From a virus: a stretch of DNA of 64,000 bases. The position numbers and the translations under genes were made by a program. Location: positions 96,001 through 160,000 of IMG/VR virus record IMGVR_UViG_3300031525_000001. The stretch is one strand, 5' to 3'. The notes below the pieces were generated by a model. It was not told the DNA's origin. It saw nothing but the letters and a program-made list of their open reading frames with translations, and made no database searches. Below, piece after piece: positions 3 to 39,367 of this stretch (positions within the stretch are counted from its first letter, which is position 1; every line of letters starts with the position of its first letter).

Positions 3-3000
3 CACGCCGACAGACCGATCAATGAGGAACAGACGAAGCTGGAACAGGACGTAGATCGTTTCAGCAAGGAACTCAAGAAGTTCCCCAAAGGGCCAACGGG
101 CATGACGCCCGATGCTACCAAAGCTACCCCCGAGTGGCAGGCGGCGAAGCGCAATTACGATACGGCTTTCCAAGCTCTGCGGAATTACAATTCCAAACAC
201 ACGGCGGCTGACCTCGGTCGATGCTCCTGTGAGTGGGAAGAGTGCCCGCTGGGTCACAAGGCGGGCGGATGTCCGAACCCCGCCGCTCACATGCTTGAGA
301 TTTACGGATACAAGACTCGCTACTGCCAGCCATGCACCGATGCGACTATCGAGTACATCCGTCTGGAACAAGGCACGGGTGATGCTGACAATACGGTCAA
401 GATTTTATCTTCTGTACAGGAGCCATACTGCGATGGTTGCGATAGACTGAAAAAGAACTGCATCTGCGAGGGCTGTGATTGCCCCGAGAACAAGAACGCA
501 AGCAAGTACGGCGATAAAATCAAGAAGATGGAAGCTCGTCGTGGCGAGTCCATTGATGAGACCCTGAAGAAAGCGGACGGTGAAGAGCAGCCCACCCTTC
601 AAAAGCTTCCCAGTGAGGGCGGCTTTAAGCCTATCGCGGCAGGTCCTCAGTACGCGGCTCCCGGATTGCGCGTTGTGCTCGCCGAGGACTGGTTTATTTA
701 TGTGACGGATGAGACCACGGAGCACATGTGGGTTTACAATACGGAGATGTGGTACGAGTGGGGAGAGATTCCAAACGCTTTCGGTGAGGACACAACGAAG
801 CCTCAGCCCACGGTCGAAGCGATGATCCCGTATGCCAAGGGGCACACACCTCAACCCGTCATGAAAGACGATGGGCAGCAATTGACGCTTCAAGAGTTTG
901 AAACTGAGGGTGCGGAGTGGACTGACCCCGGCTTTGAAAAAGAAGGCATGATCGGGCACGACTTCGTGAACGCCGATCAGGATGCGATTCGTCCCAGCAT
1001 TACGCCGGGTGACACTGGACGCCTGCCTCATGGACGCACGCAAGGATCGAAAGAGGCTGCGGAACTCGCTGGGCGTGGGGGCGGGTCGGACGATGTGCGC
1101 GGAGCAGGCGATCTGTGGCGTGAAGAATTTTATCAAGAAGGCGGCTCGGCTGGGGCTCCTCCAAAGATTGCGACATCATTGAAGACGTTAGAGTGCTGCG
1201 GGTCGGTCACGAATCACCACAAGATCGATTGTCCGCAGAAGGAAAAGGTTTGGAATGATACACTCGGTAAGCTGTACCCATCAGGCACGGCGGGACCGAA
1301 GGTAGCGGGTAAATGGAAAGTCCTCCTGCGTGATCCCAAGGGTCAGCAACGTGAACAGCAGGTTTCAGGTGTGGACTACGGTTCTGCCGAACGTGCCGTG
1401 AAAAAGTACATGAAGGAAGGCGAGAAGGTTGTATCGATGACTATTGCGAGGAAGACAGCGGCTCCAGCGGCAGCGGCTCCCGCAGCACGTCCCGCCGCAC
1501 CTGCCGCCGCACCACAGACAGTAGTAGCTCCACCACCCGGAACGGCCGTTGCTCTGCCGGGTCAGCAACCAACGACCGAAGACGAGAAACCAATGCGGAA
1601 GACAGTTGTACCCGAACTTCCCGGAAAGAAGTGGCACATGACCAGCAAAACAGCAAGCATTCTCGAAGATGCCTTCGAGTATTTCATGGAAGGCAAGAAG
1701 GAGGGCGGGCTGGCGGACGTGTTCAACGAGCGTTACACCCGCACGGGCAAGGGCGAAGACAAGTACATCGCCTGCTCCAAGCTCATGATGGATTTTGAGT
1801 ACGCTTTCCGCCGCGAAGAGGACGGCTCGCTGAGCGACATCGACGACTATCGTGAAGACGCGGAGAACGCCCTGCGTGAAATTGTCGGCGACGACCCGAA
1901 CTATACCGAGCAGGGTCATACCGAGAGATCAAGCGGCGGTGTTACTGAGACGCCCAACAAGGTGAGTGCGGGATTGCTGACCGAACAGAACACGCCAGAG
2001 ATGGAAGCTCGCGTAGCACAGTTGGCACAGACGCACCCCGAGACCGAGATTCACGAGAACTGCAATCCGTACTTTGAGCACGGGCAGTGGTGGATTGTTT
2101 GTGGGCCGTGCGGAGCCACGTGGTCGGTTGTTGACGTAGGTCACCACATGGGCGACGAAGGCGATCTTGATCTCGAACAGATTGACAACGGCGACGACTC
2201 TTGCCAAGAAAATTTCCATGAGTCTTCCACCCTCCCCATCCCGTCATCGCTGGCGACGAAGGCAGAGAACGTGATTGAGGCTTCTATCGAGAAGGAAGCG
2301 GACGGAGCACGCTTGACTAACATCAGCACTCACGATCTGGACACTGACACCGATGGTCACTGCAAGCGTTGCGGTATGAGTATGCAGGAAGCCTCGAAAG
2401 CTCCATGCGCCAAGACTGGTTCGGCGAAGAAAGCGTGGCTTGATGAGGAGGAGACATCGGAAATTCAGGGTCGTTTGGAATACCTCCGAGGCGAACTCCG
2501 CGCCGAGCGGATCAGTCAGGGAGAGTTGATGGAATTACAGGGCCTTGCCGACTACATTGATCCCGGCGATGTGGAATTGTTGGAAGCCGCTGGTGTCGAA
2601 GAAGTTATACCTCAGCCCGATGTACCCATTGAGACACCTGAGTTCGGCGAAGCCGATAAAACCCGTCTGAGGGGTCTTGGTGTAATTGGAAAGAAAAAGA
2701 AAGCGTTCGAGCCGGGTGCCAACAGTGGTATCCGTGGTTCCAACGACGGCACGTACATCTATCAAGCGGACGTGTGGTGCGAGAAGTGTGCGACAGAAAT
2801 TGCTGCCACGCTGGACGCGGAGGGTAAGACGCCGCCTAACGTGATGGACGAGGCTTCGTATGATTCGGACAACTACCCGAAAGGGCCGTTCTTCGAGGAA
2901 GAATCCGATGCACCCGAGCACTGCTCTGGTTGCCACATTTTCCTTGAGAACCCATTGACCACGGACGGTCAGACGTACATGCAGTCGATGGTTGACGAGG

Positions 3001-4505
3001 CTCTGGCGAAGGGTCGCGGCGATGAGCCACACATTAAGGAATGGATGGACTTTTACGGGTATCATCCTGAGGAGAAGGACATGCAAGAACATGAATCATC
3101 CGACGCATCGGACAAGATCAACGCAATGCCGCAACGCGGCGGCAAGCTCAAGACCCCCGCACAGTTGGGTCTCACCGAAAAGTCAGACCTCGATCTGGCT
3201 AACGAGGGAATCCCACCTCGTCACAGCAGCGAGGACAAAGTAGCGGCGACTGAACAGCCCACGTCTGGCGAAGACGAGGGGTTCAACGTCAAGGTCGTCT
3301 ACAACAAGTACGGCATCACGCTGGAGCCCACCGCCAACCTGCTCAGCGATGTGCAGGGTATCGGCGAGATGATTAACAAGCCGAATATCTTCGAACTCAT
3401 GGAGGACTTCTTCACCAATGGCTGGGAGATGGTCAACCCCGAGGACATTGGAGCACTGACATCCGGCGAACTCATGAGCGACCAAGACGGTAACGTCTAC
3501 TGGCACGAGCGTTACCAGATCGAGGACATGGTTGAAGAACTGATGAATGGCAACAAGGTCAACTTGCAGTACGGCGGCAACCTGTTCGAAATGGACGAGG
3601 GCAGCGAGATTGCCCCGCCTGCCGAACCTGATCCGAATCAGATGGACCTTCCACTTCAGTCTTCCGCTGAGGACACCGACTACAAAGACTGGCAGTATGA
3701 GGTCGCTAATGGCGACACGAAGCTTAATTTCGAGGACTGGAAAATGTACAAAGAAGAAGCGGATAAGTTCAGCCCAACGAGTTCGTCCGAGGACACTGAC
3801 CATAAAGACTGGCAGTATGAAGTTGCCAACGGCGACACCAAACTGAATTTCGAACAGTGGAAAGAACACAAGCGGGAAGCCGATTCGTTTGGTCCGAATA
3901 AAAAGGAAGCCACGGGCGAGATGAGCCAGTCTGAAGCCGATGACGCCGAAGCATGGCCGATGCACCACGCCATCGCGAAGGCACTGGGCGGCACAGTCAA
4001 GGCGTTCGACCAGTATCAGGGTCCGTATGTCCTTGTGGGCTCCGAGATTCGCGGACAGGGCACCTATGCCCCTGCCATTCCGATGAAGGGCACCGTCCGT
4101 CTATGGATTCAAGCGACAGAAGGCGGCGACGGAGCGGAGCTTCAGGTCTACAATGAGGACAATCAGAAGCTCAGCGAGCCGTTCTGGTGGGAAGACACCA
4201 ACGCGGCGGTCGATGCCGCCATGAGCGTGCTCGATCAGCCCGCAGCTAAAGCCAAGCAGCCAAAGCCGCCCGCAAAGCGTAAGGGTAGCGAAGAGAAGCA
4301 GGCAGCACCCGGCGACGGCGGACTCCAACGCGACGTGCAGAATCAGTACGAGAACCACCCACTGATCGAAATGCTGTGGGGCTCCCTGAAACGTGACCCG
4401 TCGAACAAAGATCGTGTGCAGACGGCATGGGGCACCAAGACGAAGCAGGGTTTGGTACTCAGCGTGGCTCGCGCCATGAAGGAAACCCCCGTCTCTGGAG
4501 AATAA
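3..4505 (+). CDS. Giant acidic mosaic protein, 5'-partial (over 1500 aa); candidate virion-internal polyprotein
   Basis: The frame is open from position 3, so the gene starts upstream of the window. It is D/E-rich, has many Cys/His mini-modules separated by K-x-A and (H/E)-x-S-S linkers, and carries a duplicated 40-aa unit at 3669-3908. Confidence 0.85.
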   Translation, partial: HADRPINEEQTKLEQDVDRFSKELKKFPKGPTGMTPDATKATPEWQAAKRNYDTAFQALRNYNSKHTAADLGRCSCEWEECPLGHKAGGCPNPAAHMLEIYGYKTRYCQPCTDATIEYIRLEQGTGDADNTVKILSSVQEPYCDGCDRLKKNCICEGCDCPENKNASKYGDKIKKMEARRGESIDETLKKADGEEQPTLQKLPSEGGFKPIAAGPQYAAPGLRVVLAEDWFIYVTDETTEHMWVYNTEMWYEWGEIPNAFGEDTTKPQPTVEAMIPYAKGHTPQPVMKDDGQQLTLQEFETEGAEWTDPGFEKEGMIGHDFVNADQDAIRPSITPGDTGRLPHGRTQGSKEAAELAGRGGGSDDVRGAGDLWREEFYQEGGSAGAPPKIATSLKTLECCGSVTNHHKIDCPQKEKVWNDTLGKLYPSGTAGPKVAGKWKVLLRDPKGQQREQQVSGVDYGSAERAVKKYMKEGEKVVSMTIARKTAAPAAAAPAARPAAPAAAPQTVVAPPPGTAVALPGQQPTTEDEKPMRKTVVPELPGKKWHMTSKTASILEDAFEYFMEGKKEGGLADVFNERYTRTGKGEDKYIACSKLMMDFEYAFRREEDGSLSDIDDYREDAENALREIVGDDPNYTEQGHTERSSGGVTETPNKVSAGLLTEQNTPEMEARVAQLAQTHPETEIHENCNPYFEHGQWWIVCGPCGATWSVVDVGHHMGDEGDLDLEQIDNGDDSCQENFHESSTLPIPSSLATKAENVIEASIEKEADGARLTNISTHDLDTDTDGHCKRCGMSMQEASKAPCAKTGSAKKAWLDEEETSEIQGRLEYLRGELRAERISQGELMELQGLADYIDPGDVELLEAAGVEEVIPQPDVPIETPEFGEADKTRLRGLGVIGKKKKAFEPGANSGIRGSNDGTYIYQADVWCEKCATEIAATLDAEGKTPPNVMDEASYDSDNYPKGPFFEEESDAPEHCSGCHIFLENPLTTDGQTYMQSMVDEALAKGRGDEPHIKEWMDFYGYHPEEKDMQEHESSDASDKINAMPQRGGKLKTPAQLGLTEKSDLDLANEGIPPRHSSEDKVAATEQPTSGEDEGFNVKVVYNKYGITLEPTANLLSDVQGIGEMINKPNIFELMEDFFTNGWEMVNPEDIGALTSGELMSDQDGNVYWHERYQIEDMVEELMNGNKVNLQYGGNLFEMDEGSEIAPPAEPDPNQMDLPLQSSAEDTDYKDWQYEVANGDTKLNFEDWKMYKEEADKFSPTSSSEDTDHKDWQYEVANGDTKLNFEQWKEHKREADSFGPNKKEATGEMSQSEADDAEAWPMHHAIAKALGGTVKAFDQYQGPYVLVGSEIRGQGTYAPAIPMKGTVRLWIQATEGGDGAELQVYNEDNQKLSEPFWWEDTNAAVDAAMSVLDQPAAKAKQPKPPAKRKGSEEKQAAPGDGGLQRDVQNQYENHPLIEMLWGSLKRDPSNKDRVQTAWGTKTKQGLVLSVARAMKETPVSGE

Positions 4506-4579
4506 ACCATGGAACGATTAGCCGCAGAATACTTGGAAAAACACGCCTACCAAACACCTATTGTAGAGAGGGAAACACC

Positions 4580-5653
4580 ATGGCAAACGTAAAGAAGGCA
4601 GACCGTGAGGCAGTTCGCAAGGCTATTGTAGCCCGCCGCGAAGCCCGTAAGACCGAAAAAGTGGCTCAATACGCGAAAATGCGTGAAACAGCGAAGTCCC
4701 CGGCGAAGTTCGCCAAGGTCCTCGACGAGCTTGTCGCCAAGACCGCTCGTCAGGCTGACAGCATGGAAGCCCTCCGTCACAACCTCGGTCTCGCGAGAAT
4801 CGCCAAGGATGCTCCCGCCAAAATCCGCGTTGCAGCCGCCCAAAAGTACGGCAAGAAGTTCATCCGTATCGCCGAAGAGCAGCCAGATATTCTGGCTGAC
4901 GCCCTCCAGCAAGCCTATAAGGGCTTGGATGAGCAGGCAGCCGCGATGGAAATCGCCGCCGAAGCTCTGGGTATCGACTTGGGTGCCACGCCTGCTGAGA
5001 AGGCATTTACCGACGAAGGCAAGCACGAACTTGAGCTTGGTGAAGACAAGGGCGAAGCTGTAGCCGAGTCCGAAGGTCCCGATTTTGAAGCCAAGGAAGA
5101 GACTGAAGCTGAAGCCGCAGCCGAACCCGCCGACGACGCGGAACCTGAAGCAGAGAAGGAAGCCGCCTCTGGCTCCGACGCTTTCAGCACCGACCGTGAC
5201 CCATCCGGCAACCCCAAGGCACCGCAGAAGGCCAAGATGCCGCAGGCTCAGGGCGAGGCTGAGGGCAACAAACAGGGTTCTGGTGCACAGGAACCGACCA
5301 AGCAGAAGTACACCATCGCACCGCACTCCGAAAGTGCTGAGAAGTTCGTGAAGGAAATTCCGCAGGCTCAGGGTAAAGAAGCTGGCAACAAGCTTTCCGC
5401 GATGAGCAAGAAGGATTTCATCGCTCTGGCAGACGCAATCAAGAACATGAGCGTCGGTCCCGATGAGAAGCGCAACATCGCCGAGGGATTGTGCAGCACA
5501 CTACGCGCATCCAACCCACGTTTCATGAAGGAACGCTTCATGGGCTACGTGATGGGCGAGAATGGTCCGAGCGGCGGTGCAGTAAAGCCGATTGGACAGC
5601 CGCGTAAGTCGCGTCCCGCACCGATCACGACTGCTCCCGCTGAAGGCATGTAA
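4580..5653 (+). CDS. Ala/Glu/Lys-rich helical protein (scaffold or internal head-like), about 357 aa
   Basis: ATG at 4580 follows GAGAGGG. It has coiled-coil character, an acidic middle, K-x-A motifs and a C-terminal module beginning MSKKDFIALADAIK. Confidence 0.8.
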   Translation: MANVKKADREAVRKAIVARREARKTEKVAQYAKMRETAKSPAKFAKVLDELVAKTARQADSMEALRHNLGLARIAKDAPAKIRVAAAQKYGKKFIRIAEEQPDILADALQQAYKGLDEQAAAMEIAAEALGIDLGATPAEKAFTDEGKHELELGEDKGEAVAESEGPDFEAKEETEAEAAAEPADDAEPEAEKEAASGSDAFSTDRDPSGNPKAPQKAKMPQAQGEAEGNKQGSGAQEPTKQKYTIAPHSESAEKFVKEIPQAQGKEAGNKLSAMSKKDFIALADAIKNMSVGPDEKRNIAEGLCSTLRASNPRFMKERFMGYVMGENGPSGGAVKPIGQPRKSRPAPITTAPAEGM

Positions 5654-5914: not shown

Positions 5915-5947
5915 CCTGTTGAAAACAAACCAAATATAGTCCAAAAT

Positions 5948-5980
5948 TCCTATCGTTTCTGACCCATTTTTGGGTATAAT
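5948..5980 (+). promoter_or_regulatory. Class A phage promoter TCCTATC-N17-GGGTATAAT (leaderless gene follows)
   Basis: The same motif and spacing recur at 6959 and 63519. ATG lies 7 nt after TATAAT. Confidence 0.75.
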
Positions 5981-5986
5981 AGGGAC

Positions 5987-6411: not shown

Positions 6412-6420
6412 GAGACTGAC

Positions 6421-20486: not shown

Positions 20487-20487
20487 A

Positions 20488-26668: not shown

Positions 26669-26669
26669 C

Positions 26670-27290
26670 ATGCTGATTTACAAGCTCACAAATCGAATCA
26701 ACGGTGGGGTCTACATCGGCAAATATGTCGGAGATGAGGCAGACGCTCGTTTTCAACAGCACGTTCGCGAAGCGAGACGGGGTGGGGATCGTTACCTATG
26801 CCGCACTATTCGCAAGTACGGCTCGGATGCCTTCAAGGTCGAAGTGATTTATCGTGCCAAGACCGCTGATGAACTCTCCAAGATGGAGACCTTTTTCATC
26901 GTTCTCCATCAAAGTCATAAAGTTGAGAACGGCTACAACATGACGCTGGGCGGTGAGGGAACTGTGGGCCGGATTATTTCGGAAAGAACAAGACAGCTTT
27001 GGAGTGAGCAGCGTAAAGGAAGACCTGTCACAGCGCAACAGTTGAAAAACCTAGCTCTTGGGCATCATCGACCGAAAAAAATAGTTGCGGTTAAACCCGC
27101 CGAAGAAGTGGAAGCCGCAATGAAAGCAGCGATGCGGGCTGCATGGACTCCCGAACGTAGGGCAGCACAAGCACAGCGGATAGCAAATCGGAATCGTCTT
27201 CGTGTTGGAAAACGTGGAGCATTATCTACGGAATGGAAGATGGCGATTTCAAATGCAAAGAAGGGGAAAGCAGCTTCGGCTGCGGCATAA
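26670..27290 (+). CDS. GIY-YIG homing endonuclease
   Basis: MLIYKLTNRINGGVYIG...RF.QH...GYNMTLGGEG. Confidence 0.9.
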   Translation: MLIYKLTNRINGGVYIGKYVGDEADARFQQHVREARRGGDRYLCRTIRKYGSDAFKVEVIYRAKTADELSKMETFFIVLHQSHKVENGYNMTLGGEGTVGRIISERTRQLWSEQRKGRPVTAQQLKNLALGHHRPKKIVAVKPAEEVEAAMKAAMRAAWTPERRAAQAQRIANRNRLRVGKRGALSTEWKMAISNAKKGKAASAAA

Positions 27291-27294: not shown

Positions 27295-29238
27295 ATGGCA
27301 GAAGAAAAGAAACCGTACACTAGCATCGTTGACGCATTCTTGGATGACCGCGAGCCCGCATGGAAGGACCTCGGCTTGAAGGACGCACAGGACTCAGGTG
27401 AAGAACAATTGGATCGTTCTCACCAGTACATCGATGATGAGTTCATGGACGACATCGCTGAGAGCGCCAGCAGGCACACCCCACTGTGGCCGGGTCGCAC
27501 TGGTTCAGCCGAGAAGAATGCTCAGCGGGATAGTCTTGAACGGGCTCGCGGTACGCATCTTGAGCGCATGGCTGCAAAGGACGGCACGGATGTATTCGAA
27601 GGTAGCAGTGTAAAAGGCTCAAGCGCCAATTGGCGTGTACAGGCAACCCAGCATCAGGAAGACTACAGTGGGAAGCTGGGCGACGATGACTCGCTGTTCG
27701 CCGAAGTAACGGAAACACTGGAATCGGCAGCCTCCACAGGCAAGGTCGAGAAGAAGAACGTGTCGGACGCACAGGTTTTGACTTACGTCCACAGCCTGCT
27801 CAATCAGGGTATGGCACCGTCAAAGATCGCCGCAAAGCTGAAGAAGCTGGCTGAGATCGAGTTGTTCAACCACCAGATGGCGACTCAATACCTGCAAGAG
27901 AACGCAGGACTGGTAGGCATGGCGTTCCTCGAACCCAACACCTACATGGACAAGAATTCCCCGACTTATGAACGAGAGAAGCACGGCAGTTCGAGCAACG
28001 GCTGCGTAGCGCAGAAGACGGCGTGGGACAAGGCCGGCATTAAGCCCCGAGCGGCATCCGTAAAGCAGATCAGCGCGTGCGAAGGATGCCAGTATTTCTC
28101 GAAGAACGGCAACGTTAAGTCCTGCGGTGTCTATCACTTACCAGTGGTAGCGACCACCAAGGAGCTTACACCCATCGTGAATAAGCTCACGGCTGGCGTG
28201 CCGAACAAGCAGAAGCGGGCAGCATTGGTTCAGATCGCCAATGGCAACGACGGCACCAAGGTCGGTTCCATGCCCATTGCTCCGAAGACAAGCTCCTCCG
28301 TTTCCCGTCACCCGAGTCTCGGCGGCGTGGAAGCGCAGGCAAAGCGTGTGGGTCGCGTGATCGCGACTGATTTCGATTCTTCGCACATTGCTGCGTTGCA
28401 TGAGAAGGGTCACTCACTGGCGGTTATCGCTCGTGCGGCTGAAAAGCGGTACGGTGCGTTTGCGGCGGGCAAGGCGGTACGTGAGTTCGTAGGCAGCTTG
28501 CGGCCGAACGTGAACGGACAGATCGTTCTGGCAAAGGCTGATGCGGAGTTCCTCGCAAAGGCCGGTATGCATAACCAGAATTTTGTGGCGGGTGCGAAGT
28601 GTGCATCCTGTGCCACACACTCGGCAGTGGTACAGAAACACAAGGTGACGGCGAACGCTAACTATGCCTCCCGTGTTCCACACGCAGGGTTCCACGAGAG
28701 CAACCCCGATCAGGTACGTCACGCACACCGTGCGGCTGCACCTGAACTTGATGCCAGCGTCATCGAGCGGTATCACAAGAAGGGTCACTCGATGGAGAAG
28801 ATTTACAAGCAGGCGGCAGCGAAGTTCGGCACCGCTCAGGCAAGCAAGGCAGTGAAAGAGTTCATCGCCAGCCTGAAGAAGAAGCCGATCAAGGTTGCGC
28901 TATCGCAGATCGACTGCACGTTCCTCAAGAACAAGCTTGCCGATCACAACCCAATTATCGGGGCACACAAGTGCGGCTCTTGCACGTATCGCAAGGGGAT
29001 GCACTGCGGTCTCACTGGCGGAACTCTCTTGAGCTTCCCCGGTATGGACAAAACGGCGTCCAACCACAAGGTCGGGGAGGGTGCGCCAGAGGATGGACGT
29101 ACAATTCTTGCTGAGTTTGACTTGATGCCGAATAGTGGGCGTCCGGGCGACACGAAGATGGCCGACATCGATATGAATCCTCCCGCACGTCAAGACGTGC
29201 AGATAGGTAGCTCGTTTGAGCTAGGAGACATAGAGTAA
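27295..29238 (+). CDS. Large Cys-rich protein with internal domain repeats (putative virion/head protein)
   Basis: Duplicated H.KGHS(L/M)..I...A..(R/K)(Y/F)G...A.KAV(R/K)EF..SL domain, each copy followed by KCxSC; CEGC..CGVY cluster. Confidence 0.8.
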   Translation: MAEEKKPYTSIVDAFLDDREPAWKDLGLKDAQDSGEEQLDRSHQYIDDEFMDDIAESASRHTPLWPGRTGSAEKNAQRDSLERARGTHLERMAAKDGTDVFEGSSVKGSSANWRVQATQHQEDYSGKLGDDDSLFAEVTETLESAASTGKVEKKNVSDAQVLTYVHSLLNQGMAPSKIAAKLKKLAEIELFNHQMATQYLQENAGLVGMAFLEPNTYMDKNSPTYEREKHGSSSNGCVAQKTAWDKAGIKPRAASVKQISACEGCQYFSKNGNVKSCGVYHLPVVATTKELTPIVNKLTAGVPNKQKRAALVQIANGNDGTKVGSMPIAPKTSSSVSRHPSLGGVEAQAKRVGRVIATDFDSSHIAALHEKGHSLAVIARAAEKRYGAFAAGKAVREFVGSLRPNVNGQIVLAKADAEFLAKAGMHNQNFVAGAKCASCATHSAVVQKHKVTANANYASRVPHAGFHESNPDQVRHAHRAAAPELDASVIERYHKKGHSMEKIYKQAAAKFGTAQASKAVKEFIASLKKKPIKVALSQIDCTFLKNKLADHNPIIGAHKCGSCTYRKGMHCGLTGGTLLSFPGMDKTASNHKVGEGAPEDGRTILAEFDLMPNSGRPGDTKMADIDMNPPARQDVQIGSSFELGDIE

Positions 29239-29801: not shown

Positions 29802-30260
29802 GTGGGCACCACTGAGCAAGCTAAAGAACGTCGAGATTCCCGCCGAGCCGCTGGATTATGTGGTAAGTGCTCCAATCCAGCATTGCTCGGTAAAAGCCTG
29901 TGTGAGCTGCATCGGCAGCAAGACCGTAAGATAAACAAACGGTTTAGGGTCAATCAAAAACAGCGTGTGATCGCTGGCTATGGCGGAAAATGCCAGTGCG
30001 AAGGTGGGTGTGATGAATCGAGATTTGAGTTTTTGACGATAGATCATGTCAACAACGACGGTGCGGAACACCGTAGAAACCTCGGAAGTGGCGCAATCGG
30101 ACCCATGTTGTATAAGTACATTATCGATAACAATTTTCCCGAGGAGTATAGACTACTCTGCTGGAATTGCAATTGCGCTAAGGGACACTATGGTGAGTGT
30201 CCTCACGTAAATGAAAAGAATGCTGTCGCTGCGATGTCAGTTTCGGCAGGAGGAAAGTAA
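29802..30260 (+). CDS. HNH endonuclease
   Basis: YGGKCQC..C...FLTIDHVNNDG...LLCWNCNCAKG. Confidence 0.85.
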   Translation: MGTTEQAKERRDSRRAAGLCGKCSNPALLGKSLCELHRQQDRKINKRFRVNQKQRVIAGYGGKCQCEGGCDESRFEFLTIDHVNNDGAEHRRNLGSGAIGPMLYKYIIDNNFPEEYRLLCWNCNCAKGHYGECPHVNEKNAVAAMSVSAGGK

Positions 30261-30261: not shown

Positions 30262-33200
30262 ATGGCACAAAGTGGAAACACCGTAGCTCTTAAATCGTTC
30301 CAGTCCTTCATGGTCAATGACGGATTGCTGAGCAAAACTGTCGAAGCTATCAAAGCTGGTGAGAAGGAAGCTCGCTCCACGGGTAATGTGCAGAGTTTCG
30401 AAGTTTTCTACAAGGGCTTTCGTCAGAACATTGCCATCGGTCGCATCTACATCGTCCCCCCATCCGTTGCCGACAAGAAGGGGCAAGACTTCCCGACCGC
30501 CCTGCTCTATGGTTGCCTTGTCCGCACCTTTGGTGGTGAGGAAATCGGCGACATGATCTCCCACAAAATCGGTGATACCGAATGGGATGAGTATTCTCAG
30601 GCGTCCTACGCATCGATCAAGAAAGAACTCTTCGGCACCGAAAACGACAAGTTCGCCGCCCTCATTTTGTTTGCCCCCAACTGGGTCAATAAGCGTGAGT
30701 ACATCGGCTTCCAGTTCCCGAAGGATGACAACGAGCTTGCGAACCTGACTCGTCACTTAGTCTTCAGTTCGTACTTCGACCCCCGTCTGTCCTCGGCATT
30801 CGATGCCCTGATGACCGATGTGGAGACCTCGAAGTTCGATGTCACGGACATCACGCCGAAGATGAACTTCCCCGCCTTGGCCGAGAATCCGCTGAAGGAA
30901 TTCCCACTGCTCACCAAGGAGGGTTCAAAGAAGAAAGCCCGCCTTGGGCTAACCATCAAGACCGCCGAAGAAGTCACCAAGGCCGTACTAGAGCCGCAGG
31001 AGATGGACGTGTTCGAATCTTTGGACACGGCTCTCCGCAACAGCCTCTTGCCAAACGATTCCAAGGGCGTTGAGGATGCTTCCGAGGGTAAGGCTCCGAC
31101 AAAGGGTGAAATGGTTCCACGTCTCTCATCCAAGAAGGGTTCCGCCAAGGTTGCTCATGGCTACATCGCGTTCTACGGCGGCAAGCGCATTGAGATTCAA
31201 GCCGACTCCCTCTATGGGGCGAAGTTGAAAGCCATCGAGATGCTGAAGGTTCCGAAGTCCAAACAGGGCTTGCTCGCGGTCGAGCTTGCCGAAAAGGACG
31301 GAGAACAGGTCACCACAACAATCACGTCGTCCGCCACTGCGGTATTCGAGACCCCGATTACAAACGTTGGTCCGGGTACTGAAGCCCATGACGAAGCCAA
31401 CCAGCGCACCGAAGGCTACAAGGATGAGAAGGACACGCCAAAGGTTGTCATCAACAGCGCACCGATTGGTATCGCTCTCGACGAGACTGGTGTACCCCGC
31501 CGTCCAGAGGAAGAGCGTAAGTCCGCCGCAAGCAGTTACTACCCTGCTTCCGCTGGTAAGGCTCAAACTGAAAACGCTGCGGTCGTGGAGAAACACGGTT
31601 ATACCCAATTTAATTCCAAGCCAGACGGAACTTCCTTTTGGAAGAGTCCTATCGGAACTACCGCTGTTCTATACCCAAACGGAAGCTGGATGCACACAGG
31701 CGGTAAGGGAGATGGGGCAAAGGCCCTTAGCGAGCTTCTCATAAGCTACCACCACGAGAGAGTGCCAAAGGTCAGCAAGTCAGCAGCGTATGGCGACCGT
31801 CGCGATTTTCGGAAGATCGATATCTTCGTTAGCGGCAAGTATGTCGCAAGCACGACATGGGCTAGTTCCATAAAGGAAGCAATCCAAAAATACGAGGAAA
31901 AGAACCCGGGCTCGTGGGCTGGTGAAGTTAAGGCTCAATTTGATAAGAAAGGCTCGGCTGATAAAACTGCCGTAGACTACAGCGGCAATTACCCCGAGGC
32001 AATCGGCGGTGGTTGGAATAAAGCGACGGCAGATGATCTGTCGAGCGGCTATTCCAAGCAGGTCGGCAACGGTTTGATGGATGAGACCCCCGACAAAGTA
32101 AAGGAACATTTGAAGAAAAATGTCAGTCAAGCCCGTCAGGGTCAGGATGCCCTGAAGGATCACAATGCATCATTTGACGCCGCCAAGTGGGGCGGACTGG
32201 GTGTGAAGCAGGCTTCCTCCCTGTGGGTAGGTTCCGCCAAGAAGGTTGCAGCCAATCTCGATGACTTCACTAGCCAGTACATTATAACCGCTCTATGGTC
32301 TTCGAATGATGAATCTGACCCCAGCGGCGGTGAGCCGTTGGATTCAAACTACGATATCCTCGATCTCGCACCGTCCTGCTTGCAGGCAATGACCGAAGAT
32401 TGCGCGGGCTTCCAAGCGGAGAATCAAGAGCTTCTGGCTGCGGCATCCGAACAAGATGGTCAGGACGCCGAGCGTCAAGGTCATGATTTCTGGCTCACCC
32501 GCTGCGGTCATGGTGCGGGCTACTGGGATGGCGATTATCCGACAACGGGCGATGGTTTGACTGAAGCCGCCAAGAAATGGGGTAGCGTTGATCTGTACGT
32601 CGGTGACGACGACATGATCTATCAGATGGGGGCAGAAGACCCGAGTTCGCGTGGTTACGGACAGAAGGGCGGGCCTGCAAAGGCTGGCTCGAAGATGGCT
32701 TCCAAGAAGACCGCCTCGCAAAATGATGCATCATACATCGCCAGCTTGATCGGCGGCGGGGTGCATAGTGAAGATTATGACGCTCGTTCGCAGCACTCCA
32801 GAACGGCGGCACAGAAGCGCGAAGACGAGATGGCTCGCAAGTATTCCTCTCAGCGTAAAAAGTTTGCCGACGTTCCTCAGGACATCGAAGACATTTGGTC
32901 TGAGACGATGGAAGACATGGGGCCAGCACCCGAGATCAGACTCCCGGGCGAGAGTGAGGACAACGAAAAGTCCACCACAGGGGAGCACGAGATCGAGGCT
33001 CCAGAGATGGGCGCGGATTCGAGAAGCGACGTTCCTGAGCAGGTCAAGGGCGATCAGGAAGAGCCGACCGTAAAGGTTGAAGAGGCTCTTGAGAACGACA
33101 CCACCAAGTCCGAAGAGGACGAGCCCAGCACGGGCGATGGTGGAGCGTCGGCGGACAGCGGTGAAACAAAGTCCGAAAAGAAGTCCGAGGGTGGTTCCCA

Positions 33201-36045
33201 GTCCGAATGGGCGAAGAACCGCAGCAAGGGTAAGTCCGAGAAGAAGGACGAGTCCGAAGAGTCTGAGGAAGAGCCGAAGGAAGAGGAGTCCAAAACGGCT
33301 GCTCGGCCCGGTGCCCGTCCTGCCAGACAGCGTGTCCGTTGCGATCAGTGCGAGATGTTGAGCATCAATGGCACGGCGACTCACGAGACAGGCTGCCCAA
33401 ACCAGAATTCCCGCTGGGATGCTGACCGACAGGATTGGGTAAAGCAGCGTCGTTGCGGCGAATGCGGCATGGACGTTGACGCCGATGATCCGTGTTGTTC
33501 TGCGGAACCTGACTTCGACAACGGTTACGACGAAAACGATGAGCATTTTGGTGGGCTCGATGCTATCCTCGCTGACGACACCGATGCAGTAATGGAGCAG
33601 GCGGAAGAAGCCGCAACAGCAGCCCCCGCTGTGTTCTATGAGTGCGGAGCCTGCGGCGGCGTGCACCCGTCCTTGGAGACTTCCGAAAGGCTCGGTCTCG
33701 GTTGGAACGGTGATTGTCGTGATGAGGTTGGTCACTTCGAAGACAGCGACGTTCCTTACGGAGACAACACTCAGTTCGTCACCTTGGAAGAGCAGATGGC
33801 TCCAGACTTCGATGACGCGATTCTGGCGTCTAAGACTGCGGACTATGCCGAGGGCGACCTTGAAACTTACTTCGACGAAGGAAAGACGGCGGATTACGCC
33901 GAGGGCGATCTCGAAACCTACTTCGATGAGGGGAAGACGGCAGACTACGCCGAAGATGATTTTGCATCTTACTTCGGAGAGGAAAAATCGGCGGGACGTT
34001 CCACCACACCGAAGTACGTCATTCGTATTCCGGGTTCGACCGATGCCGCATGGAACGTGAGCGGTTACGGACAACAGCGTGGTGCGGGCCAGCCAAACCA
34101 AGCGAACCTCGCACGGTACATGGAAGCTCTCTTGAAGAGCATGGAACCGGGCGGGCACAACGAGCATTTGGTGGGTCATTTCGACCCATCCGAAGCTGCG
34201 GTTTATCGCAACGACGGCACCTACAAGAACCCGTTGGCTACATGGTCGAAGGGTGAAGCGAAGCAGGGTGCGGATGTCTCGGGCGATTTCTCGGAAGCGC
34301 ATTCCGAGGTTGACAGCCCAGACACCGTGGATCAGGACATCAAGCAGCCGACCGAATCGGTAGGCGAAGCTGGTAAGAGAAAGAACGCTGATGTGGCGGA
34401 AGAAACCAAGGAAGAGCGGGCGAAACGTCTGGAAGATCAGCGTCAGCGCGATGCTCGTGAACTGACACGTCGCAAGGCGGCTGACATCTCGGGGGACATC
34501 TCTGAGGCTAAGTCGAACACGGAAAGCCCTGACGGGGTGGACGCCGACATTAAGCAGCCTACGGTTTCGGTTCCCGAAGCGGCACGCAAGAACGCTAAGG
34601 TGGGATTCACGTTCAATGGACAGCACCGTGAAGCTGCCTTTAGCGATCTCACACAAGCGGGGAAGTTCATAGCGGTAGCCTCGGCCAAATTTGGAAAATT
34701 GGCTAGTGACTGGACGATAACCGCAGCCGATGACGATGATGCGGCGGAAGATCAGTCCGTTGATTCGAAGAAGCCCGATGACGCTGAAGCTGACGAACCA
34801 GCCGAAGCTGCAAAGCCTGCGGATTCGAAGAAGCCTGATGAGACGAAGGGCAAGAACAAGCCCGCCGTTACTCCTCCCGCGAAGGCTGAAGCACCAGCGG
34901 CAGCACCAGCAGCACCCGCAGCGGCGGCGGTTCCAGCGGCGGCACCAGCCGTAGCAGCGCCAGCAGATGGTGCAGGTGGTAATGGAACCTCGGAAACTTC
35001 TGGTAACGAAACATCGACTGAAACTGGCGGTTCAAGTCCGGGTGGTGCATCAACTGGCGGCGTAGGTAGCGGCATGGGTGGTGCAGGTACAGGCGGGGCT
35101 GGCACAGGCGGTGCCGCGACTAGCACGGGAACAGGCGGGGCTGGCACGGGTGGAACTGTGAGCATTGCACCAACGAGCACAAACTCAGCGGGTGGTGACG
35201 AAGGCGGCGGTGAAGACGGCAGCGTACAAGCTGCTGGTCAACCTGCTGGTGGGGCACAACCTAAAACCCCGACCATCATCATCTACAACGGCGGCACGGG
35301 CGGTGCATCTACCGTCGATACGGATAGCGGTTCGGGTCCGGGCGGCGATGGGCCGGGTTCTGATGGAACTGGCGGCACGGGCGAAGGCTCTGGCGGCGGT
35401 GGAGGCGGCGGGGGTGGACGTGGAACTCCGCGCAACCCTGAACAGGCAGCGGATGCCGTTTCTCCGGGAGTTGACAGCGACAATCGTCAACAAGGTGACT
35501 TGGCAGAACCACAGGGCAACCAGTCAAAGGGTAAGCCTTTGGCAACGAAGCCTGAAGGACAAGACGATCAGTTAAAGGGCAATGATAAGCCCGAGCTACG
35601 CGGTGACGCGCCTGTGGAGCCTCAGGAGCCACAGCCTCCACACGAAGACGCAGCAGACGACACGAAAGAAGCTGCCGCAGGAATGCCAGCCGAAGTCGGG
35701 GAATTCCCGTATGTCGAGACGCTGGTAGGTATGGGTTGGAGCGACGAGGGCGAACCGGGGCATTTCATGCTCGGCGATAGCCGTGTCGAAGTCCTGACGT
35801 ACACCGATGGCTACGAAGTATACGTAGACGGCGAACTGTACGAATCAGGCGACAACGTGGATGAACTCCAGAACACACTGGAACTCGTTGCCGAACTCGG
35901 TGTGGATGCGTTGAATGCACATCAGGCCTCAGATGACAAAACAGCATGTGCGGGCTACGGTGACGAAGAAGATGAAGAGCGTCCAATCGATCTCGGTATC
36001 GGCGATCTAGCGGACTTGGTTGTGGAGAAGGAAGATGCCCATTAA
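30262..36045 (+). CDS. Giant mosaic protein (about 1927 aa); candidate polyprotein
   Basis: ATG at 30262 after AGGAGG. It has a globular N-terminus, then many modules flanked by K-x-A, acidic and Gly/Thr low-complexity tracts, and internal repeats. Confidence 0.9.
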   Translation: MAQSGNTVALKSFQSFMVNDGLLSKTVEAIKAGEKEARSTGNVQSFEVFYKGFRQNIAIGRIYIVPPSVADKKGQDFPTALLYGCLVRTFGGEEIGDMISHKIGDTEWDEYSQASYASIKKELFGTENDKFAALILFAPNWVNKREYIGFQFPKDDNELANLTRHLVFSSYFDPRLSSAFDALMTDVETSKFDVTDITPKMNFPALAENPLKEFPLLTKEGSKKKARLGLTIKTAEEVTKAVLEPQEMDVFESLDTALRNSLLPNDSKGVEDASEGKAPTKGEMVPRLSSKKGSAKVAHGYIAFYGGKRIEIQADSLYGAKLKAIEMLKVPKSKQGLLAVELAEKDGEQVTTTITSSATAVFETPITNVGPGTEAHDEANQRTEGYKDEKDTPKVVINSAPIGIALDETGVPRRPEEERKSAASSYYPASAGKAQTENAAVVEKHGYTQFNSKPDGTSFWKSPIGTTAVLYPNGSWMHTGGKGDGAKALSELLISYHHERVPKVSKSAAYGDRRDFRKIDIFVSGKYVASTTWASSIKEAIQKYEEKNPGSWAGEVKAQFDKKGSADKTAVDYSGNYPEAIGGGWNKATADDLSSGYSKQVGNGLMDETPDKVKEHLKKNVSQARQGQDALKDHNASFDAAKWGGLGVKQASSLWVGSAKKVAANLDDFTSQYIITALWSSNDESDPSGGEPLDSNYDILDLAPSCLQAMTEDCAGFQAENQELLAAASEQDGQDAERQGHDFWLTRCGHGAGYWDGDYPTTGDGLTEAAKKWGSVDLYVGDDDMIYQMGAEDPSSRGYGQKGGPAKAGSKMASKKTASQNDASYIASLIGGGVHSEDYDARSQHSRTAAQKREDEMARKYSSQRKKFADVPQDIEDIWSETMEDMGPAPEIRLPGESEDNEKSTTGEHEIEAPEMGADSRSDVPEQVKGDQEEPTVKVEEALENDTTKSEEDEPSTGDGGASADSGETKSEKKSEGGSQSEWAKNRSKGKSEKKDESEESEEEPKEEESKTAARPGARPARQRVRCDQCEMLSINGTATHETGCPNQNSRWDADRQDWVKQRRCGECGMDVDADDPCCSAEPDFDNGYDENDEHFGGLDAILADDTDAVMEQAEEAATAAPAVFYECGACGGVHPSLETSERLGLGWNGDCRDEVGHFEDSDVPYGDNTQFVTLEEQMAPDFDDAILASKTADYAEGDLETYFDEGKTADYAEGDLETYFDEGKTADYAEDDFASYFGEEKSAGRSTTPKYVIRIPGSTDAAWNVSGYGQQRGAGQPNQANLARYMEALLKSMEPGGHNEHLVGHFDPSEAAVYRNDGTYKNPLATWSKGEAKQGADVSGDFSEAHSEVDSPDTVDQDIKQPTESVGEAGKRKNADVAEETKEERAKRLEDQRQRDARELTRRKAADISGDISEAKSNTESPDGVDADIKQPTVSVPEAARKNAKVGFTFNGQHREAAFSDLTQAGKFIAVASAKFGKLASDWTITAADDDDAAEDQSVDSKKPDDAEADEPAEAAKPADSKKPDETKGKNKPAVTPPAKAEAPAAAPAAPAAAAVPAAAPAVAAPADGAGGNGTSETSGNETSTETGGSSPGGASTGGVGSGMGGAGTGGAGTGGAATSTGTGGAGTGGTVSIAPTSTNSAGGDEGGGEDGSVQAAGQPAGGAQPKTPTIIIYNGGTGGASTVDTDSGSGPGGDGPGSDGTGGTGEGSGGGGGGGGGRGTPRNPEQAADAVSPGVDSDNRQQGDLAEPQGNQSKGKPLATKPEGQDDQLKGNDKPELRGDAPVEPQEPQPPHEDAADDTKEAAAGMPAEVGEFPYVETLVGMGWSDEGEPGHFMLGDSRVEVLTYTDGYEVYVDGELYESGDNVDELQNTLELVAELGVDALNAHQASDDKTACAGYGDEEDEERPIDLGIGDLADLVVEKEDAH
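33832..33984 (+). repeat. 3 x 51-nt (17-aa) coding tandem repeat KTADYAEGDLETYFDEG
   Basis: Units at 33832, 33883 and 33934. Units 1 and 2 are identical in protein but differ at 9 synonymous sites. Confidence 0.95.
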
Positions 36046-39000
36046 GATCGATGACTTGCACGCCGCTGCCGCTCGTATGGCGGCGGACATCATGCACAGC
36101 GACAATGATCTGTCTCAGAAGCTCGAAACGGCGACCCCCGCAGCGGCGGAAGCTGGACCGAGCCACGATGAGTTGGTTGAGAATTCCCACAGCGAAAGCG
36201 GAGTTGGCGTAATCGACGGTGAAATCCGTCCGCCTGAACGTCAGAACGTCTCTGCCGTCAAGGATGCCATTGAAGCTCAAGCCGAGATGGAAATCGGTAA
36301 GACCATCGGAGAAAAAGAAGAAGAGATGGAGGCTCGTGGCGACGGTCCTTACGGTGACAAAGAAGTCAAGGACACCGCAGGCGCGACCGAAGTTACCGCC
36401 AAGCCGGGAACTCAAATCATCATCAACGTTGCGGGCAAGAAACAGGCTGCCCGAGAGTTCGTTGTAAAGCACACGACCGTAAACGACTCCCGTGGTCCGA
36501 AGACAGGCTGGTGGATTTTCGAAGATGGTCGGCCTTCGGGTATGCGTGCTACGCAAGAGGAAGCAGTGCAAGCTGCCGAGGCTACCGCACAACTCCGCAT
36601 AGTTAATGGGCAGGTCGCCCCAGTTCGTGTTGAAGCAGGTCAGAAAGAGCAACCCATCGGTGGTGAGAAGCAGCACCCAAGGGAAAACACCTCAGCCAAC
36701 GGTATGTTCGGCGGTACGAACTTGTCGGCAACCCCGAATTTTGAGAAGCACTCCGAAGAGGGTGCCCCCGATCCTGACACGGTTGCCCGTGTTCGTGGTC
36801 AGTACACATCCGGCATGGGGCGTAAATCCTGCATGGAGCACTTCAAGATCACGGAACAGCAGCTTGATGACATCCTGAGCGGGAAGTATGGCAAGGGAAA
36901 GTTCGCCTCGTATCACGAAGTTAAAGCAGCCTTCCTCAAGAAGGGTAGCTTCCTGACGATTGATGAGGTCAAGAAAGCAGGACAGGAATACCTGCACATG
37001 ATCCGCACCGCTGCGATTAGCGTGGCACAAGGTCAGGACGAGCAAGGGTTCCACATGCTGCTGAGCATGAACGGGCGTGAGTACGTCCTTCGTGGGGCGG
37101 ATGCGGACAGTTTCCGTAAAGAGTATGCCGCGATTCCAAAGCCCGAAGCGGCTGTCAACAAGCTCGTTGAAAAGTATTTGTGGAAAATGCAGCCGTACCA
37201 GAAACAGACCATTCAGCACCCACCGTCCGAGACGAAGCAGGACCCGAACAGTCAGGCACTTCGCCGCCAGCGGTCGGAAGGGTTGGCGGATGCGGATGCT
37301 TATTGGGCAGGCAAGGAAAAGCAGCCGAACGATTACAAGCGGTACATGACGCAGCACGCTTCCGCGAAGATCGCCGCAACATCATACGCGGAGTACCAGA
37401 AGTTGGTACAGGAGCGCAACCAGATTATCTCTCAGAATCGTAGCCGCCAGATGAAGGGTCAACCACCCGTGCCAGTGCCACCGAAGCCAGAGGTGCCGAT
37501 GGTTCCAGTGGCGTATGCTGCGGATGGGACGTATGAGGGTCGGCTACAGGACCCAGCGGATTGCCCACCGGGTTGCACCGTAAAGTGGGAGCCTTCCAAG
37601 GGAGCCAGTATGATGACCTTGGCTAAGCTGGCGGCTGATTATTTCGGCTACGATGATTGGATCACAGGGCACACCGCTCTGATGATTAACAATGATTCGG
37701 CGGGACTTACGACGCTGCACAATTTGGTCCGCAGTGCCCTGAAGAACAAGAAGACTCCGAAGATGTTGGCGGGTCAGCTTGCGAAGTTCTTCAAGAAGTT
37801 CGGCGACCAGAGCAAGAAGTTCTACGCGGAGAACGCCGACAATGCTCGGGGCGAGCGTGGTAAGCACGAGCGTGAGCAACTCGAAGGCGTGGTTAAAGCG
37901 CCAAGCGGCGACAAGGCCCGTGATTTCGTCGATAACCTGACGAACATGTGGTACGACGCGGGTGGGCAGAGTGACTGGGAGCAGCCAGCGGGTGAAGTTA
38001 ACTGGGAGGAGATCGCCTCTGCGGAGATGGAGTCCGAGCGTGCGGAGAACCCAGACAAGTACCCGAAGACAAACAAGGAAGACGACAAATTCATGGAAGG
38101 TGTGGGGATGAAGATGGAATCACTCAGGACAGCAACGGCAGTATTAGCAAGAGTCGCCGCTATGAGCGTGGGTGACAAACATCAGCTTCGCATCGCAATC
38201 GACTCTCTCAAAATGAACCCCGCTATGCTGGGCGTCATGGGGGGACCTGACAAAGAACAAGCTTTGGAAATCTTAGCTAGGCACGGTTTACGCTGGGACG
38301 AAGCAGGAGGTAAGGCTGTGAAAGCAAACGATAAGAAGGCCGCTGCTGGTTGCGACTGGCAGACCGAATACGGAATGGGTGCTGGCGATGCCCGCTGTGG
38401 ACAGCCGACCACGGGTAATTCTCCGTGGTGTGCCGAACACATTCAGGAAGCCAAAGACAACTACCCGCAGCACGCCCTCCCGACCAAGAATGGTGGGGAA
38501 GGTGCGGCTAAGACCCCAGAAGAGATCGAAAAGGAAGCAGGCTTCAATTTCTTCTTCCCGGGTCAGGTACTTCGTGAGGTTGCCCCCGAGATGCAACATG
38601 AACTCGTGGACTATCCAAACCAGACCAACACCCCAATGCAGTATCCTGACATCGTTGGTGACGGGGAAGAGGTTCCAGAAGAGATGGCTCTTGCAGCCGC
38701 TCTCGAAGGCGCTATGGATACAACCATCATCGCTTACGTCAGCACCAGCCCCGCCGCTGCCGCAGGTATCGGTCGTGACGGCAAGACTGAAGTGCTCGAA
38801 GGGGCCCCGCTCCGCAAGGAAAACGACATCCGTGGTATGATGTTCACGGACGAGTTTTACGGTCAGCAAGAGGGCGTCCCGGGTGCGGCATTCGCAAGCA
38901 CCAAGGCCGCAGGTGGATTCGCCCGTCCGGGTTCGGCGTTCAAGTTCCTGAAGAGTCTCAAGCTGGGCAAGACGGCAGGTGCCGACGAAGCCAAGCAGTT

Positions 39001-39367
39001 CTCGATCTTCCTTCAGTACGTTTGCGGTGAGATCGCGGCTACTCTCGTGGCGTTGTTCAAGGTCACCTATCGTCCGATGCTGAACCAAGTTCCGGGCAAG
39101 GGTGAGATTCAACTGGCTCAGGTCGAACAGCCGCAAGGTCTGTCGAGCTTCAACATCTACAATCAGGCGAGCCGTGTGAAGTACCTGATGAACAAGCTCA
39201 CCGACAGCGAGATCAAGGACGCCATCAATAGCTCCTCGGCTCAGGGTGCGGTGTGGCACGAAGGTGAAGAGGGCGGCTACGTGTACGAAGTTTTCGTCCG
39301 TATCGACGACATCGACACTGAGAGCCTGATCGCGACGTATAGCTTTATTTGCGGCACGAAGGAATAA
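36035..39367 (+). CDS. Giant mosaic protein (about 1110 aa); candidate polyprotein
   Basis: Overlaps the upstream stop. It has K-x-A-delimited modules and a globular C-terminal domain. Confidence 0.9.
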   Translation: MPIKIDDLHAAAARMAADIMHSDNDLSQKLETATPAAAEAGPSHDELVENSHSESGVGVIDGEIRPPERQNVSAVKDAIEAQAEMEIGKTIGEKEEEMEARGDGPYGDKEVKDTAGATEVTAKPGTQIIINVAGKKQAAREFVVKHTTVNDSRGPKTGWWIFEDGRPSGMRATQEEAVQAAEATAQLRIVNGQVAPVRVEAGQKEQPIGGEKQHPRENTSANGMFGGTNLSATPNFEKHSEEGAPDPDTVARVRGQYTSGMGRKSCMEHFKITEQQLDDILSGKYGKGKFASYHEVKAAFLKKGSFLTIDEVKKAGQEYLHMIRTAAISVAQGQDEQGFHMLLSMNGREYVLRGADADSFRKEYAAIPKPEAAVNKLVEKYLWKMQPYQKQTIQHPPSETKQDPNSQALRRQRSEGLADADAYWAGKEKQPNDYKRYMTQHASAKIAATSYAEYQKLVQERNQIISQNRSRQMKGQPPVPVPPKPEVPMVPVAYAADGTYEGRLQDPADCPPGCTVKWEPSKGASMMTLAKLAADYFGYDDWITGHTALMINNDSAGLTTLHNLVRSALKNKKTPKMLAGQLAKFFKKFGDQSKKFYAENADNARGERGKHEREQLEGVVKAPSGDKARDFVDNLTNMWYDAGGQSDWEQPAGEVNWEEIASAEMESERAENPDKYPKTNKEDDKFMEGVGMKMESLRTATAVLARVAAMSVGDKHQLRIAIDSLKMNPAMLGVMGGPDKEQALEILARHGLRWDEAGGKAVKANDKKAAAGCDWQTEYGMGAGDARCGQPTTGNSPWCAEHIQEAKDNYPQHALPTKNGGEGAAKTPEEIEKEAGFNFFFPGQVLREVAPEMQHELVDYPNQTNTPMQYPDIVGDGEEVPEEMALAAALEGAMDTTIIAYVSTSPAAAAGIGRDGKTEVLEGAPLRKENDIRGMMFTDEFYGQQEGVPGAAFASTKAAGGFARPGSAFKFLKSLKLGKTAGADEAKQFSIFLQYVCGEIAATLVALFKVTYRPMLNQVPGKGEIQLAQVEQPQGLSSFNIYNQASRVKYLMNKLTDSEIKDAINSSSAQGAVWHEGEEGGYVYEVFVRIDDIDTESLIATYSFICGTKE

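Follow-up and report, generated by a model that had tools for sequence, protein, structure and literature searches.

The window under study is a 64,000-nucleotide stretch of phage DNA, bases 96001-160000 of a 186,275-bp single contig (IMG/VR record IMGVR_UViG_3300031525_000001). The analysis concerned six open reading frames (ORFs) in it, designated A to F and amounting to 6234 amino acids (aa) in total, in which K-x-A followed by A, S, G or D (written K.A[ASGD], the strict motif) recurs as a candidate cleavage signal of the phage's prohead protease. These genes are sited between tail-fibre-like genes and the terminase gene (large subunit, window 40996-43128). The capsid protein (genome 87552-88667) is 71% identical to that of Tunturiibacter phage Tunturi_5, a cultivated 309-kb jumbo myovirus (record PP885688; Microbiome 2025, PMC11924767), 50% identical to that of LR745208, a 485-kb metagenomic phage, and 35% identical to that of Bacillus phage G. 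The protease ranks the relatives in the same order and is 63% identical to the Tunturi_5 protease. The source is a soil jumbo phage and kin of Tunturi_5, with phage G more remote. When E and F were compared with deposited phages by megablast, no close DNA relative was returned. The focal ORFs and the features within them are as follows.

3-4505, plus strand: ORF A, the 3' 1500 codons of a 1968-aa ORF (genome 94599-100505) that is cut by the window edge.
4580-5653, plus strand: ORF B, 357 aa, with its own Shine-Dalgarno-like sequence.
26351-26668, plus strand: ORF C, 105 aa, a homologue of Tunturi_5 gp347 with two motif sites.
27295-29238, plus strand: ORF D, 647 aa, a homologue of Tunturi_5 gp348.
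30262-36045, plus strand: ORF E, 1927 aa, in which a conserved domain of about 280 aa at the N-terminus leads into a mosaic train of modules.
32251-32625, plus strand: the phrog_1915 module within E, directly preceded by a K-V-A junction at 32242-32250.
33832-33985, plus strand: three tandem 51-nucleotide (17-aa) units, each opening with K-T-A-D; the next site, K-S-A-G, starts at 33985.
36035-39367, plus strand: ORF F, 1110 aa, a module train and a conserved C-terminal domain.
38531-39367, plus strand: the conserved C-terminal domain of F, which opens at a K-E-A-G site and has 45% identity to the C-terminus of Tunturi_5 gp350.

The original prediction, made from the sequence alone, held that these ORFs are punctuated by K-x-A, typically with A, S, G or D next. 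All six were open as it had stated, and its 22 example strings were all located at the expected places. Observed counts were compared with those in shuffled sequences, the shuffling being done both globally and locally within 40-aa blocks. The pair K.A was found 84 times in the focal ORFs, compared to about 54-55 expected (z 4.4 with both shuffle types), and was the strongest non-Cys pair of the 400 a-x-b pairs tested there; in the other 53,197 aa of the genome it was at expectation (232 vs. 218). The predicted enrichment was thus seen over shuffled controls and over the rest of the proteome. The typical followers were as predicted also: K.A[ASGD] was counted 55 times against 18 expected (z 8.6, local shuffles), and K.A followed by any other residue was not enriched (29 vs. 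37, z -1.6). With the entire excess confined to the strict form, the signal spans four residues. Strict sites number 14 in A, 18 in E (6.1 expected), 11 in F (3.2 expected) and seven in D (2.3 expected). ORF D itself is conserved in 11 of 11 IMG/VR loci. At the x position, Thr is favoured 3-fold, and Gly, Pro and Arg are avoided. This position is less conserved than the motif K and A, which are themselves only modestly more conserved among close relatives than other K and A residues. The corresponding nucleotide pattern, AAR-NNN-GCN, was found 84 times in frame, compared to 24 and 6 times in the two alternative frames, and the motif draws on all four Ala codons in normal proportions. The signal is therefore at the protein level, and a DNA-level motif was ruled out by the frame bias.

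The motif was picked after the sequence had been read, and Lys/Ala-rich helical stretches do exist, especially in scaffold proteins; the enrichment could accordingly be an artefact of composition, of chance or of post-hoc motif choice. We consider this very improbable. The excess survives the 40-aa local shuffles, the reversed motif [ASGD]A.K is only weakly enriched (27 vs. 18, z 2.1), K.A stands first among the non-Cys pairs, the strict motif has no excess in the rest of the proteome (46 vs. 44, z 0.2), and the excess recurs in regions of the relatives that are not homologous to the window. On these data, an artefact of composition or chance was rejected. A second linker type, (H/E/Q)-x-S-S, had been proposed for ORF A; it does occur there above expectation (4 vs. 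0.9), but the cases are too few and the count mostly reflects a general excess of the SS dipeptide, and this candidate was dropped.

All 202 predicted proteins were ranked by their excess of the strict motif. The top ranks were taken by the focal ORFs, by three adjacent genes upstream of the window and by a 3883-aa ORF downstream of it. In the proteins of the head module, K.A[ASGD] was found 25 times against 10.5 expected (z 4.8). The prohead protease that the original prediction would have sought elsewhere in the genome is present at genome 80227-81183, upstream of the window; it was recognized as a head maturation protease by its match to PHROG 18299 (E 6e-15). A scaffold-like gene lies directly downstream of it, and the capsid gene about 6 kb further downstream.

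Motif sites are found around the homologous core of the protease (residues 58-263), at residues 51, 64 and 290. A family alignment of 11 sequences, LR745208 and phage G included, was used to examine their conservation. The site near the C-terminus, K290-x-A292-S293, is kept in all 11, with K290 and A292 invariant and S293 almost invariant; close to the N-terminus, K23-x-A25 shows little or no variation, and a K-[TS]-A-[ASD] site just ahead of the conserved core is present in most members. H75, H129 and S187 are invariant as well. When the family was compared with T4 gp21 using hhalign, the match was not significant; H129 and S187 were paired with one His and one Ser of gp21. The phage G protease retains K-I-A-S near its C-terminus. 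The protease ORF of one IMG/VR relative (L096:10022-12181) has 719 aa, compared to the usual length of about 300 aa, and may represent a protease-scaffold fusion or a missed stop codon.

The gene next to the protease encodes a 732-aa protein with 13 motif sites (4.4 expected), which is presumably the scaffold because it is acidic and coiled-coil-like. The capsid protein carries K-T-A-G and K-L-A-A at residues 19-29 of the likely true start, and the positions of both are identical in Tunturi_5 and LR745208. In the phage G capsid protein, gp27 (L010:9001-9849), E-T-E and A-L-A are aligned to K-T-A and K-L-A of the clade. The strict motif is thus common to the capsid N-terminus, the scaffold-like protein, the protease termini and the internal proteins, and is conserved across the clade.

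The same excess was found in the relatives. In Tunturi_5 it is confined to gp328, gp331 (the protease), gp332, gp334 (the capsid protein), gp345, gp348 and gp350, and the sheath and large tail-fibre proteins have the motif at expectation. LR745208 displays the same excess around its head genes. Searching with the N-terminal domain of E gave eleven IMG/VR loci with E homologues of 1317-2249 aa; in these, K.A[ASGD] occurs at 2.5-3.6 times expectation, also in long stretches without homology to the window. In 80 loci located through the protease, the strict motif was counted 438 times in the scaffold family (157 expected), 129 times in the protease (25 expected) and 72 times in the capsid protein (12.6 expected); a conserved 220-aa virion protein in these loci had it once (5.7 expected). 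Overall, the pattern recurs in about 90 IMG/VR loci.

Protease ends, scaffold, capsid N-terminus and internal proteins make up the classical substrate set of a prohead protease, which leads to the reading of the motif as a cleavage signal; and the presence of this motif in capsid protein, scaffold and protease makes it probable that the giant ORFs too are cut by the head protease. The observations on which this is built are the statistics of the motif, its placement, its conservation in the clade and the mosaic architecture of the ORFs. We consider it probable that the motif is a prohead-protease cleavage signal and that the giant ORFs encode head-packaged polyproteins. The motif could instead be a linker that is never cleaved, a recombination scar or a binding signal for assembly, the proteins acting intact in the manner of polyvalent proteins. 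There are precedents in the N4 virion RNA polymerase and ArdC/TraC1, which are reported to be transferred or packaged unprocessed (PMC5512222). Pure linkers or scars should not flank the protease core on both sides, occur at the capsid N-terminus and crowd the scaffold-like protein, however, and the lower conservation of the x position compared to K and A also counts against it. This alternative was judged clearly unlikely.

The Tunturi_5 genes are syntenic with those of the window, and BLAST placed parts of one on parts of the other. The N-terminus of ORF A corresponds to residues 77-192 of gp345 and ORF B to residues 475-630, in the C-terminal part of the same protein; residues 20-279 of ORF E correspond to residues 1-262 of gp350, and residues 838-1114 of ORF F to residues 835-1078. 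On this homology, A and B are an expanded, split gp345, and E and F an expanded, split gp350. The growth relative to Tunturi_5 is from 667 aa to about 2300 aa for A and B, and from 1080 aa to about 3040 aa for E and F. The parts found in E and F make up a single 2249-aa ORF in loci L015/L017 and a single 1080-aa ORF (gp350) in Tunturi_5. The homology blocks of E, F and A differ in order and position between relatives. As the alignments depict them, E and F belong to one family with conserved N- and C-terminal domains and a hypervariable middle of shuffled modules, and A and B likewise have conserved N- and C-terminal regions around an expanded middle.

The start of ORF F overlaps the end of ORF E by 11 nucleotides and lies behind a GGAG-like Shine-Dalgarno-like sequence. 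Because B and F have starts of their own, A/B and E/F are separate cistrons rather than frameshift artefacts. A single tRNA was found by ARAGORN at window 40626-40700 (plus strand); its anticodon is CTA, that of an amber suppressor (the program label is tRNA-Pyl). Since A and E end in TAA, this tRNA does not join A to B or E to F. Amber read-through was rejected for both pairs on that ground and on the ribosome-binding-like sequences of B and F.

Compared to the gene order of Tunturi_5, about 20 kb (window 5654-26300) are inserted between the homologues of gp345 and gp347. Carried on the minus strand of the insert are an 824-aa ORF and a GIY-YIG homing endonuclease (24573-25328); an EndoVII-like gene is present as well, as is a gene cluster at 12519-23876 (glycosyltransferase, epimerase, aminotransferase and dTDP-sugar genes). 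The window holds GIY-YIG and HNH/EndoVII-like homing endonucleases and a block of sugar-nucleotide and glycosyltransferase genes; homing-endonuclease-like genes (GIY-YIG; EndoVII/HNH-like) are located at 26592-27290 (plus) between C and D, at 29802-30260 (plus) between D and E, and at 39418-39942 (plus) after F. Such genes may contribute to the exchange of modules between relatives. Among the tail-fibre-like genes upstream, a 614-aa protein with DUF2793 and Ice_binding (PF11999) matches is encoded at genome 91809-93653 (L006:7809-9653); the relatives of the phage come from cold-soil metagenomes.

The sites were also compared with the boundaries of modules. Coincidence was found for the phrog_1915 module, for the start of the C-terminal domain of F, for the ADP-ribosyltransferase (ART) modules of the 3883-aa protein (described below) and for the ends of homology blocks; a global test was beyond the quality of the AlphaFold models. 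The phrog_1915 domain occupies residues 681-805 of E and is matched by 3616 library proteins at E < 1e-10. Many of these are stand-alone proteins of about 130 aa, and their residues 2-6 align to E residues 681-683, the first ones after K678-V-A680. Of five copies within the clade, four are immediately preceded by K-K-[VI]-A, and in the fifth K-I-A lies six residues upstream. Among embedded copies in database hits, K.A was found within 8 residues upstream in 12 of 90, some of them from close relatives; because the proportion is this small, the junction is a feature of the clade and not a part of the phrog_1915 domain. Of 68 homology-block ends, 13 were no more than 5 aa from a strict site, with 6.6 expected (p about 0.01). 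The AlphaFold2 models offered four small usable islands, which start 1-11 aa after K-V-A, K-S-A-A (twice) and K-Q-A-A.

Few of the modules could be named. ORFs A, B, D, E and F had no Pfam match at E < 0.001. None of Pfam, PHROGs and NCBIfam assigned a functional domain to A, B, C, D or F, and E matched only two PHROGs of unknown function. Sequence and profile searches of the PDB with the protease and with the E and F alignments returned nothing usable. A label for E and F as a "DarB-like antirestriction protein" stems only from the annotation of Tunturi_5 gp350, and the methyltransferase and helicase domains of P1 DarB were found neither in E or F with Pfam nor in F with NCBIfam. Long stretches of E are acidic and of low complexity, for example residues 887-1030 and 1499-1821.

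Recognizable domains occur in large proteins beyond the window. The 3883-aa ORF (genome 164984-176635; L007:4984-16635) has Pfam matches to ART-PolyVal, a PARP/Tpt1-like ART, 2H phosphoesterase, GNAT, NUDIX and SprT-like domains and, by this domain content, is a bona fide polyvalent protein. It contains ten ART modules of the YHG type. A variant of the motif lies 6-22 residues upstream of YHG in all nine internal ones: K-x-A-[AG] in five, V-[TA]-A-[AS] in three and R-K-A-D in one. Upstream of this ORF is a Prok-JAB peptidase gene, preceded by a gene for a 628-aa protein with InPase and RelA-SpoT domains (Pfam).

These neighbours raise the question of which peptidase would act. The junctions might be cut by the SprT-like zincin of the 3883-aa protein, by the adjoining stand-alone JAB enzyme or by a host protease, and Iyer et al. 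proposed that polyvalent proteins are autoprocessed by embedded zincin peptidases (PMC5512222). Pfam does place a SprT-like match inside the 3883-aa ORF, short of the curated cut-off (E 6.5e-5), and the gene immediately before this ORF matches Prok-JAB. JAB enzymes, however, usually cleave after Gly-Gly, no peptidase domain was found in the focal ORFs with Pfam, and neither of the two phage peptidases would account for the motif at the protease termini or in the capsid protein and scaffold. We accord this possibility little likelihood.

The effector domains of these neighbours bear on a further alternative, namely that the prohead protease does cut at the motif and that the giant proteins are disposable scaffold or material like that of an inner body, degraded to peptides and expelled like T4 gp22 so that the DNA has space, rather than cargo. 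Several features would suit such a role: the long acidic, low-complexity stretches of E together with the 17-aa repeat units bounded by the motif, the dense occurrence of the motif in the scaffold-like protein, and the want of a recognizable enzymatic domain in the focal ORFs. However, the modules include a widespread folded domain that also exists as a stand-alone phage protein, the same junctions part true effector domains (ART-PolyVal, NUDIX, GNAT, 2H, RelA/SpoT) in the neighbouring polyvalent proteins, and the rapid shuffling of modules is more like that of conflict proteins than of scaffolds. As an account of all the giant ORFs it seems unlikely, if deserving of some weight. Within the cargo reading, the acidic, low-complexity stretches suggest that a part of E serves as filler, and the neighbouring ART, NUDIX, GNAT and RelA-SpoT arrays suggest that fragments are effectors delivered to the host.

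The proposed course of events is as follows. During head assembly, the protease would trim its own N- and C-terminal extensions, take about 21-28 residues off the capsid protein and fragment the scaffold-like protein. It would also cut the products of A/B, D and E/F into single modules and short peptides, and the 3883-aa ADP-ribosyltransferase array and the 628-aa pyrophosphatase/RelA-SpoT protein would be cut likewise. From the analogy with the P3-x-P1 motifs of phage proteases and with the assemblin sites between A and S, we infer that the cut falls after Ala, with K (sometimes V or R) at P3, A at P1 and a small residue or Asp at P1'. Ala and the small residue after it are the constant elements, and K is replaceable by V or R. 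Retention of the products in the head and ejection of some of them into the host are, like cleavage at the sites itself, steps predicted from the sequence. A bolder form of the proposal is that an Ala-P1 head protease, cutting between K-x-A and a small residue, operates throughout the clade and dices packaged polyproteins, about ten ART modules included, into dozens of injected single-domain effectors, and that the junction motif lets modules plug in by recombination. To this we give somewhat less than even credence.

The original prediction spoke of dozens of small proteins and peptides. Its number was roughly right given the 55 strict sites, and the pieces would be obtained only if all of them were cut; a hypothetical cut at every one yields pieces of 1-353 aa, most of them between 17 and about 350 aa, three being the 17-aa repeat units. 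Its wider claim of head-packaged polyproteins fared well in that every testable prediction based on sequence came out favourably, with the check on boundaries positive only in part.

Several results weigh against this reading. In AlphaFold2 models built from shallow alignments, the mean predicted local distance difference test (pLDDT) score was 41 for E residues 18-1200 and 35 for F, which is too poor to place the sites in linkers. The site at E residue 147 is inside the conserved, probably folded N-terminal domain. The contrast between an acidic spacer before each site and a module after it, which had been claimed, was no more than a weak trend in hydrophobic fraction (0.23 upstream vs. 0.26 downstream, paired p 0.07), with acidity equal on both sides; the difference in composition is not significant. 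Pfam and PHROGs recognized no effector domain in the focal ORFs. The protease had no match in Pfam, NCBIfam or the PDB sequences, and no link to a solved protease by sequence. The strict motif is in no more than mild excess in the 3883-aa protein (13 vs. 7.3), where several junctions begin with V or R instead of K.

In T4, phiKZ-like phages and SPN3US, numerous head and ejection proteins are known to be processed at a motif of three residues (PMC10052503). The SPN3US protease, gp245, cuts many such proteins after A-X-E, and several motifs may lie within single propeptides (PMC10052503). The present system resembles those of T4 gp21, phiKZ gp175 and SPN3US gp245 in having a short P3-x-P1 motif in the capsid protein, scaffold, protease and internal proteins, with cleavage here being predicted. 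The motifs differ: K-x-A-(A/S/G/D) here and (L/I/A/S/G)-x-E there. The third position of the enriched motif is Ala rather than Glu, and phage G alone has E-T-E at the aligned place in the capsid protein. Furthermore, SPN3US substrates mostly lose one N-terminal propeptide, whereas the putative substrates here are giant mosaics, the largest being of 1968 aa in the window and of 3883 aa outside it, along which 7-18 sites are distributed.

A likeness is also offered by the herpesvirus assemblins, whose maturation and release sites have the consensus hydrophobic-x-A-S, with the cut between A and S; T4 gp21-type prohead proteases are reported to share the assemblin fold. Ala at P1, a small P1' residue and a specified P3 would be common to assemblin and the protease considered here, and the P3 residue would differ in being mainly Lys. 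If the proposal is true, the specificity of this prohead protease (Ala at P1, Lys at P3) is unlike that of the Glu-specific phage enzymes and nearer to that of assemblin.

Polyvalent proteins were described by Iyer, Burroughs, Anand, de Souza and Aravind in 2017 (PMC5512222), who predicted their packaging in the head and proposed that their domains are released by embedded zincin or C-terminal assemblin-like peptidases. The giant proteins of this phage are similar in being very large and multidomain, in being shuffled between relatives and in being encoded beside virion genes. Polyvalent hallmarks are found beyond the window, ART-PolyVal in the 3883-aa neighbour and InPase in the 628-aa neighbour; in the focal A, B, D, E and F, Pfam matched neither a hallmark nor any other domain. 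The proposed mode of release also differs, since here a separate prohead protease would act at a defined junction motif. A full-text search of the literature for "prohead protease" together with "polyvalent protein" led to the 2017 paper and its embedded or C-terminal peptidases (PMC5512222), and to a preprint about a CRISPR system and Thermus phages. Were the proposal true, release at defined junctions by the prohead protease would be added to the mechanisms put forward there.

Tunturi_5 gp345, gp348 and gp350 are orthologous and syntenic to the focal genes and display the same enrichment of the motif. In the window phage, gp345 and gp350 are each split in two and expanded about threefold by inserted modules. 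In the Tunturi paper, gp350 bears the label "DarB-like anti restriction", and processing is not mentioned (PMC11924767). Since Tunturi 5 and its host, Tunturiibacter psychrotolerans X4BP1, are both cultured (PMC11924767), the question is testable. What appears to be new, as read from these genomes, is a motif with Lys at P3 and Ala at P1, its repeated use at junctions between modules of giant mosaics, and its spread over a large, unstudied clade of soil jumbo phages. If the proposal holds, a four-residue signal would allow the processed virion proteome of this uncharacterised clade to be read from sequence; in the bolder form of the proposal, the giant ORFs would be a DNA-phage counterpart of the polyproteins of RNA viruses.

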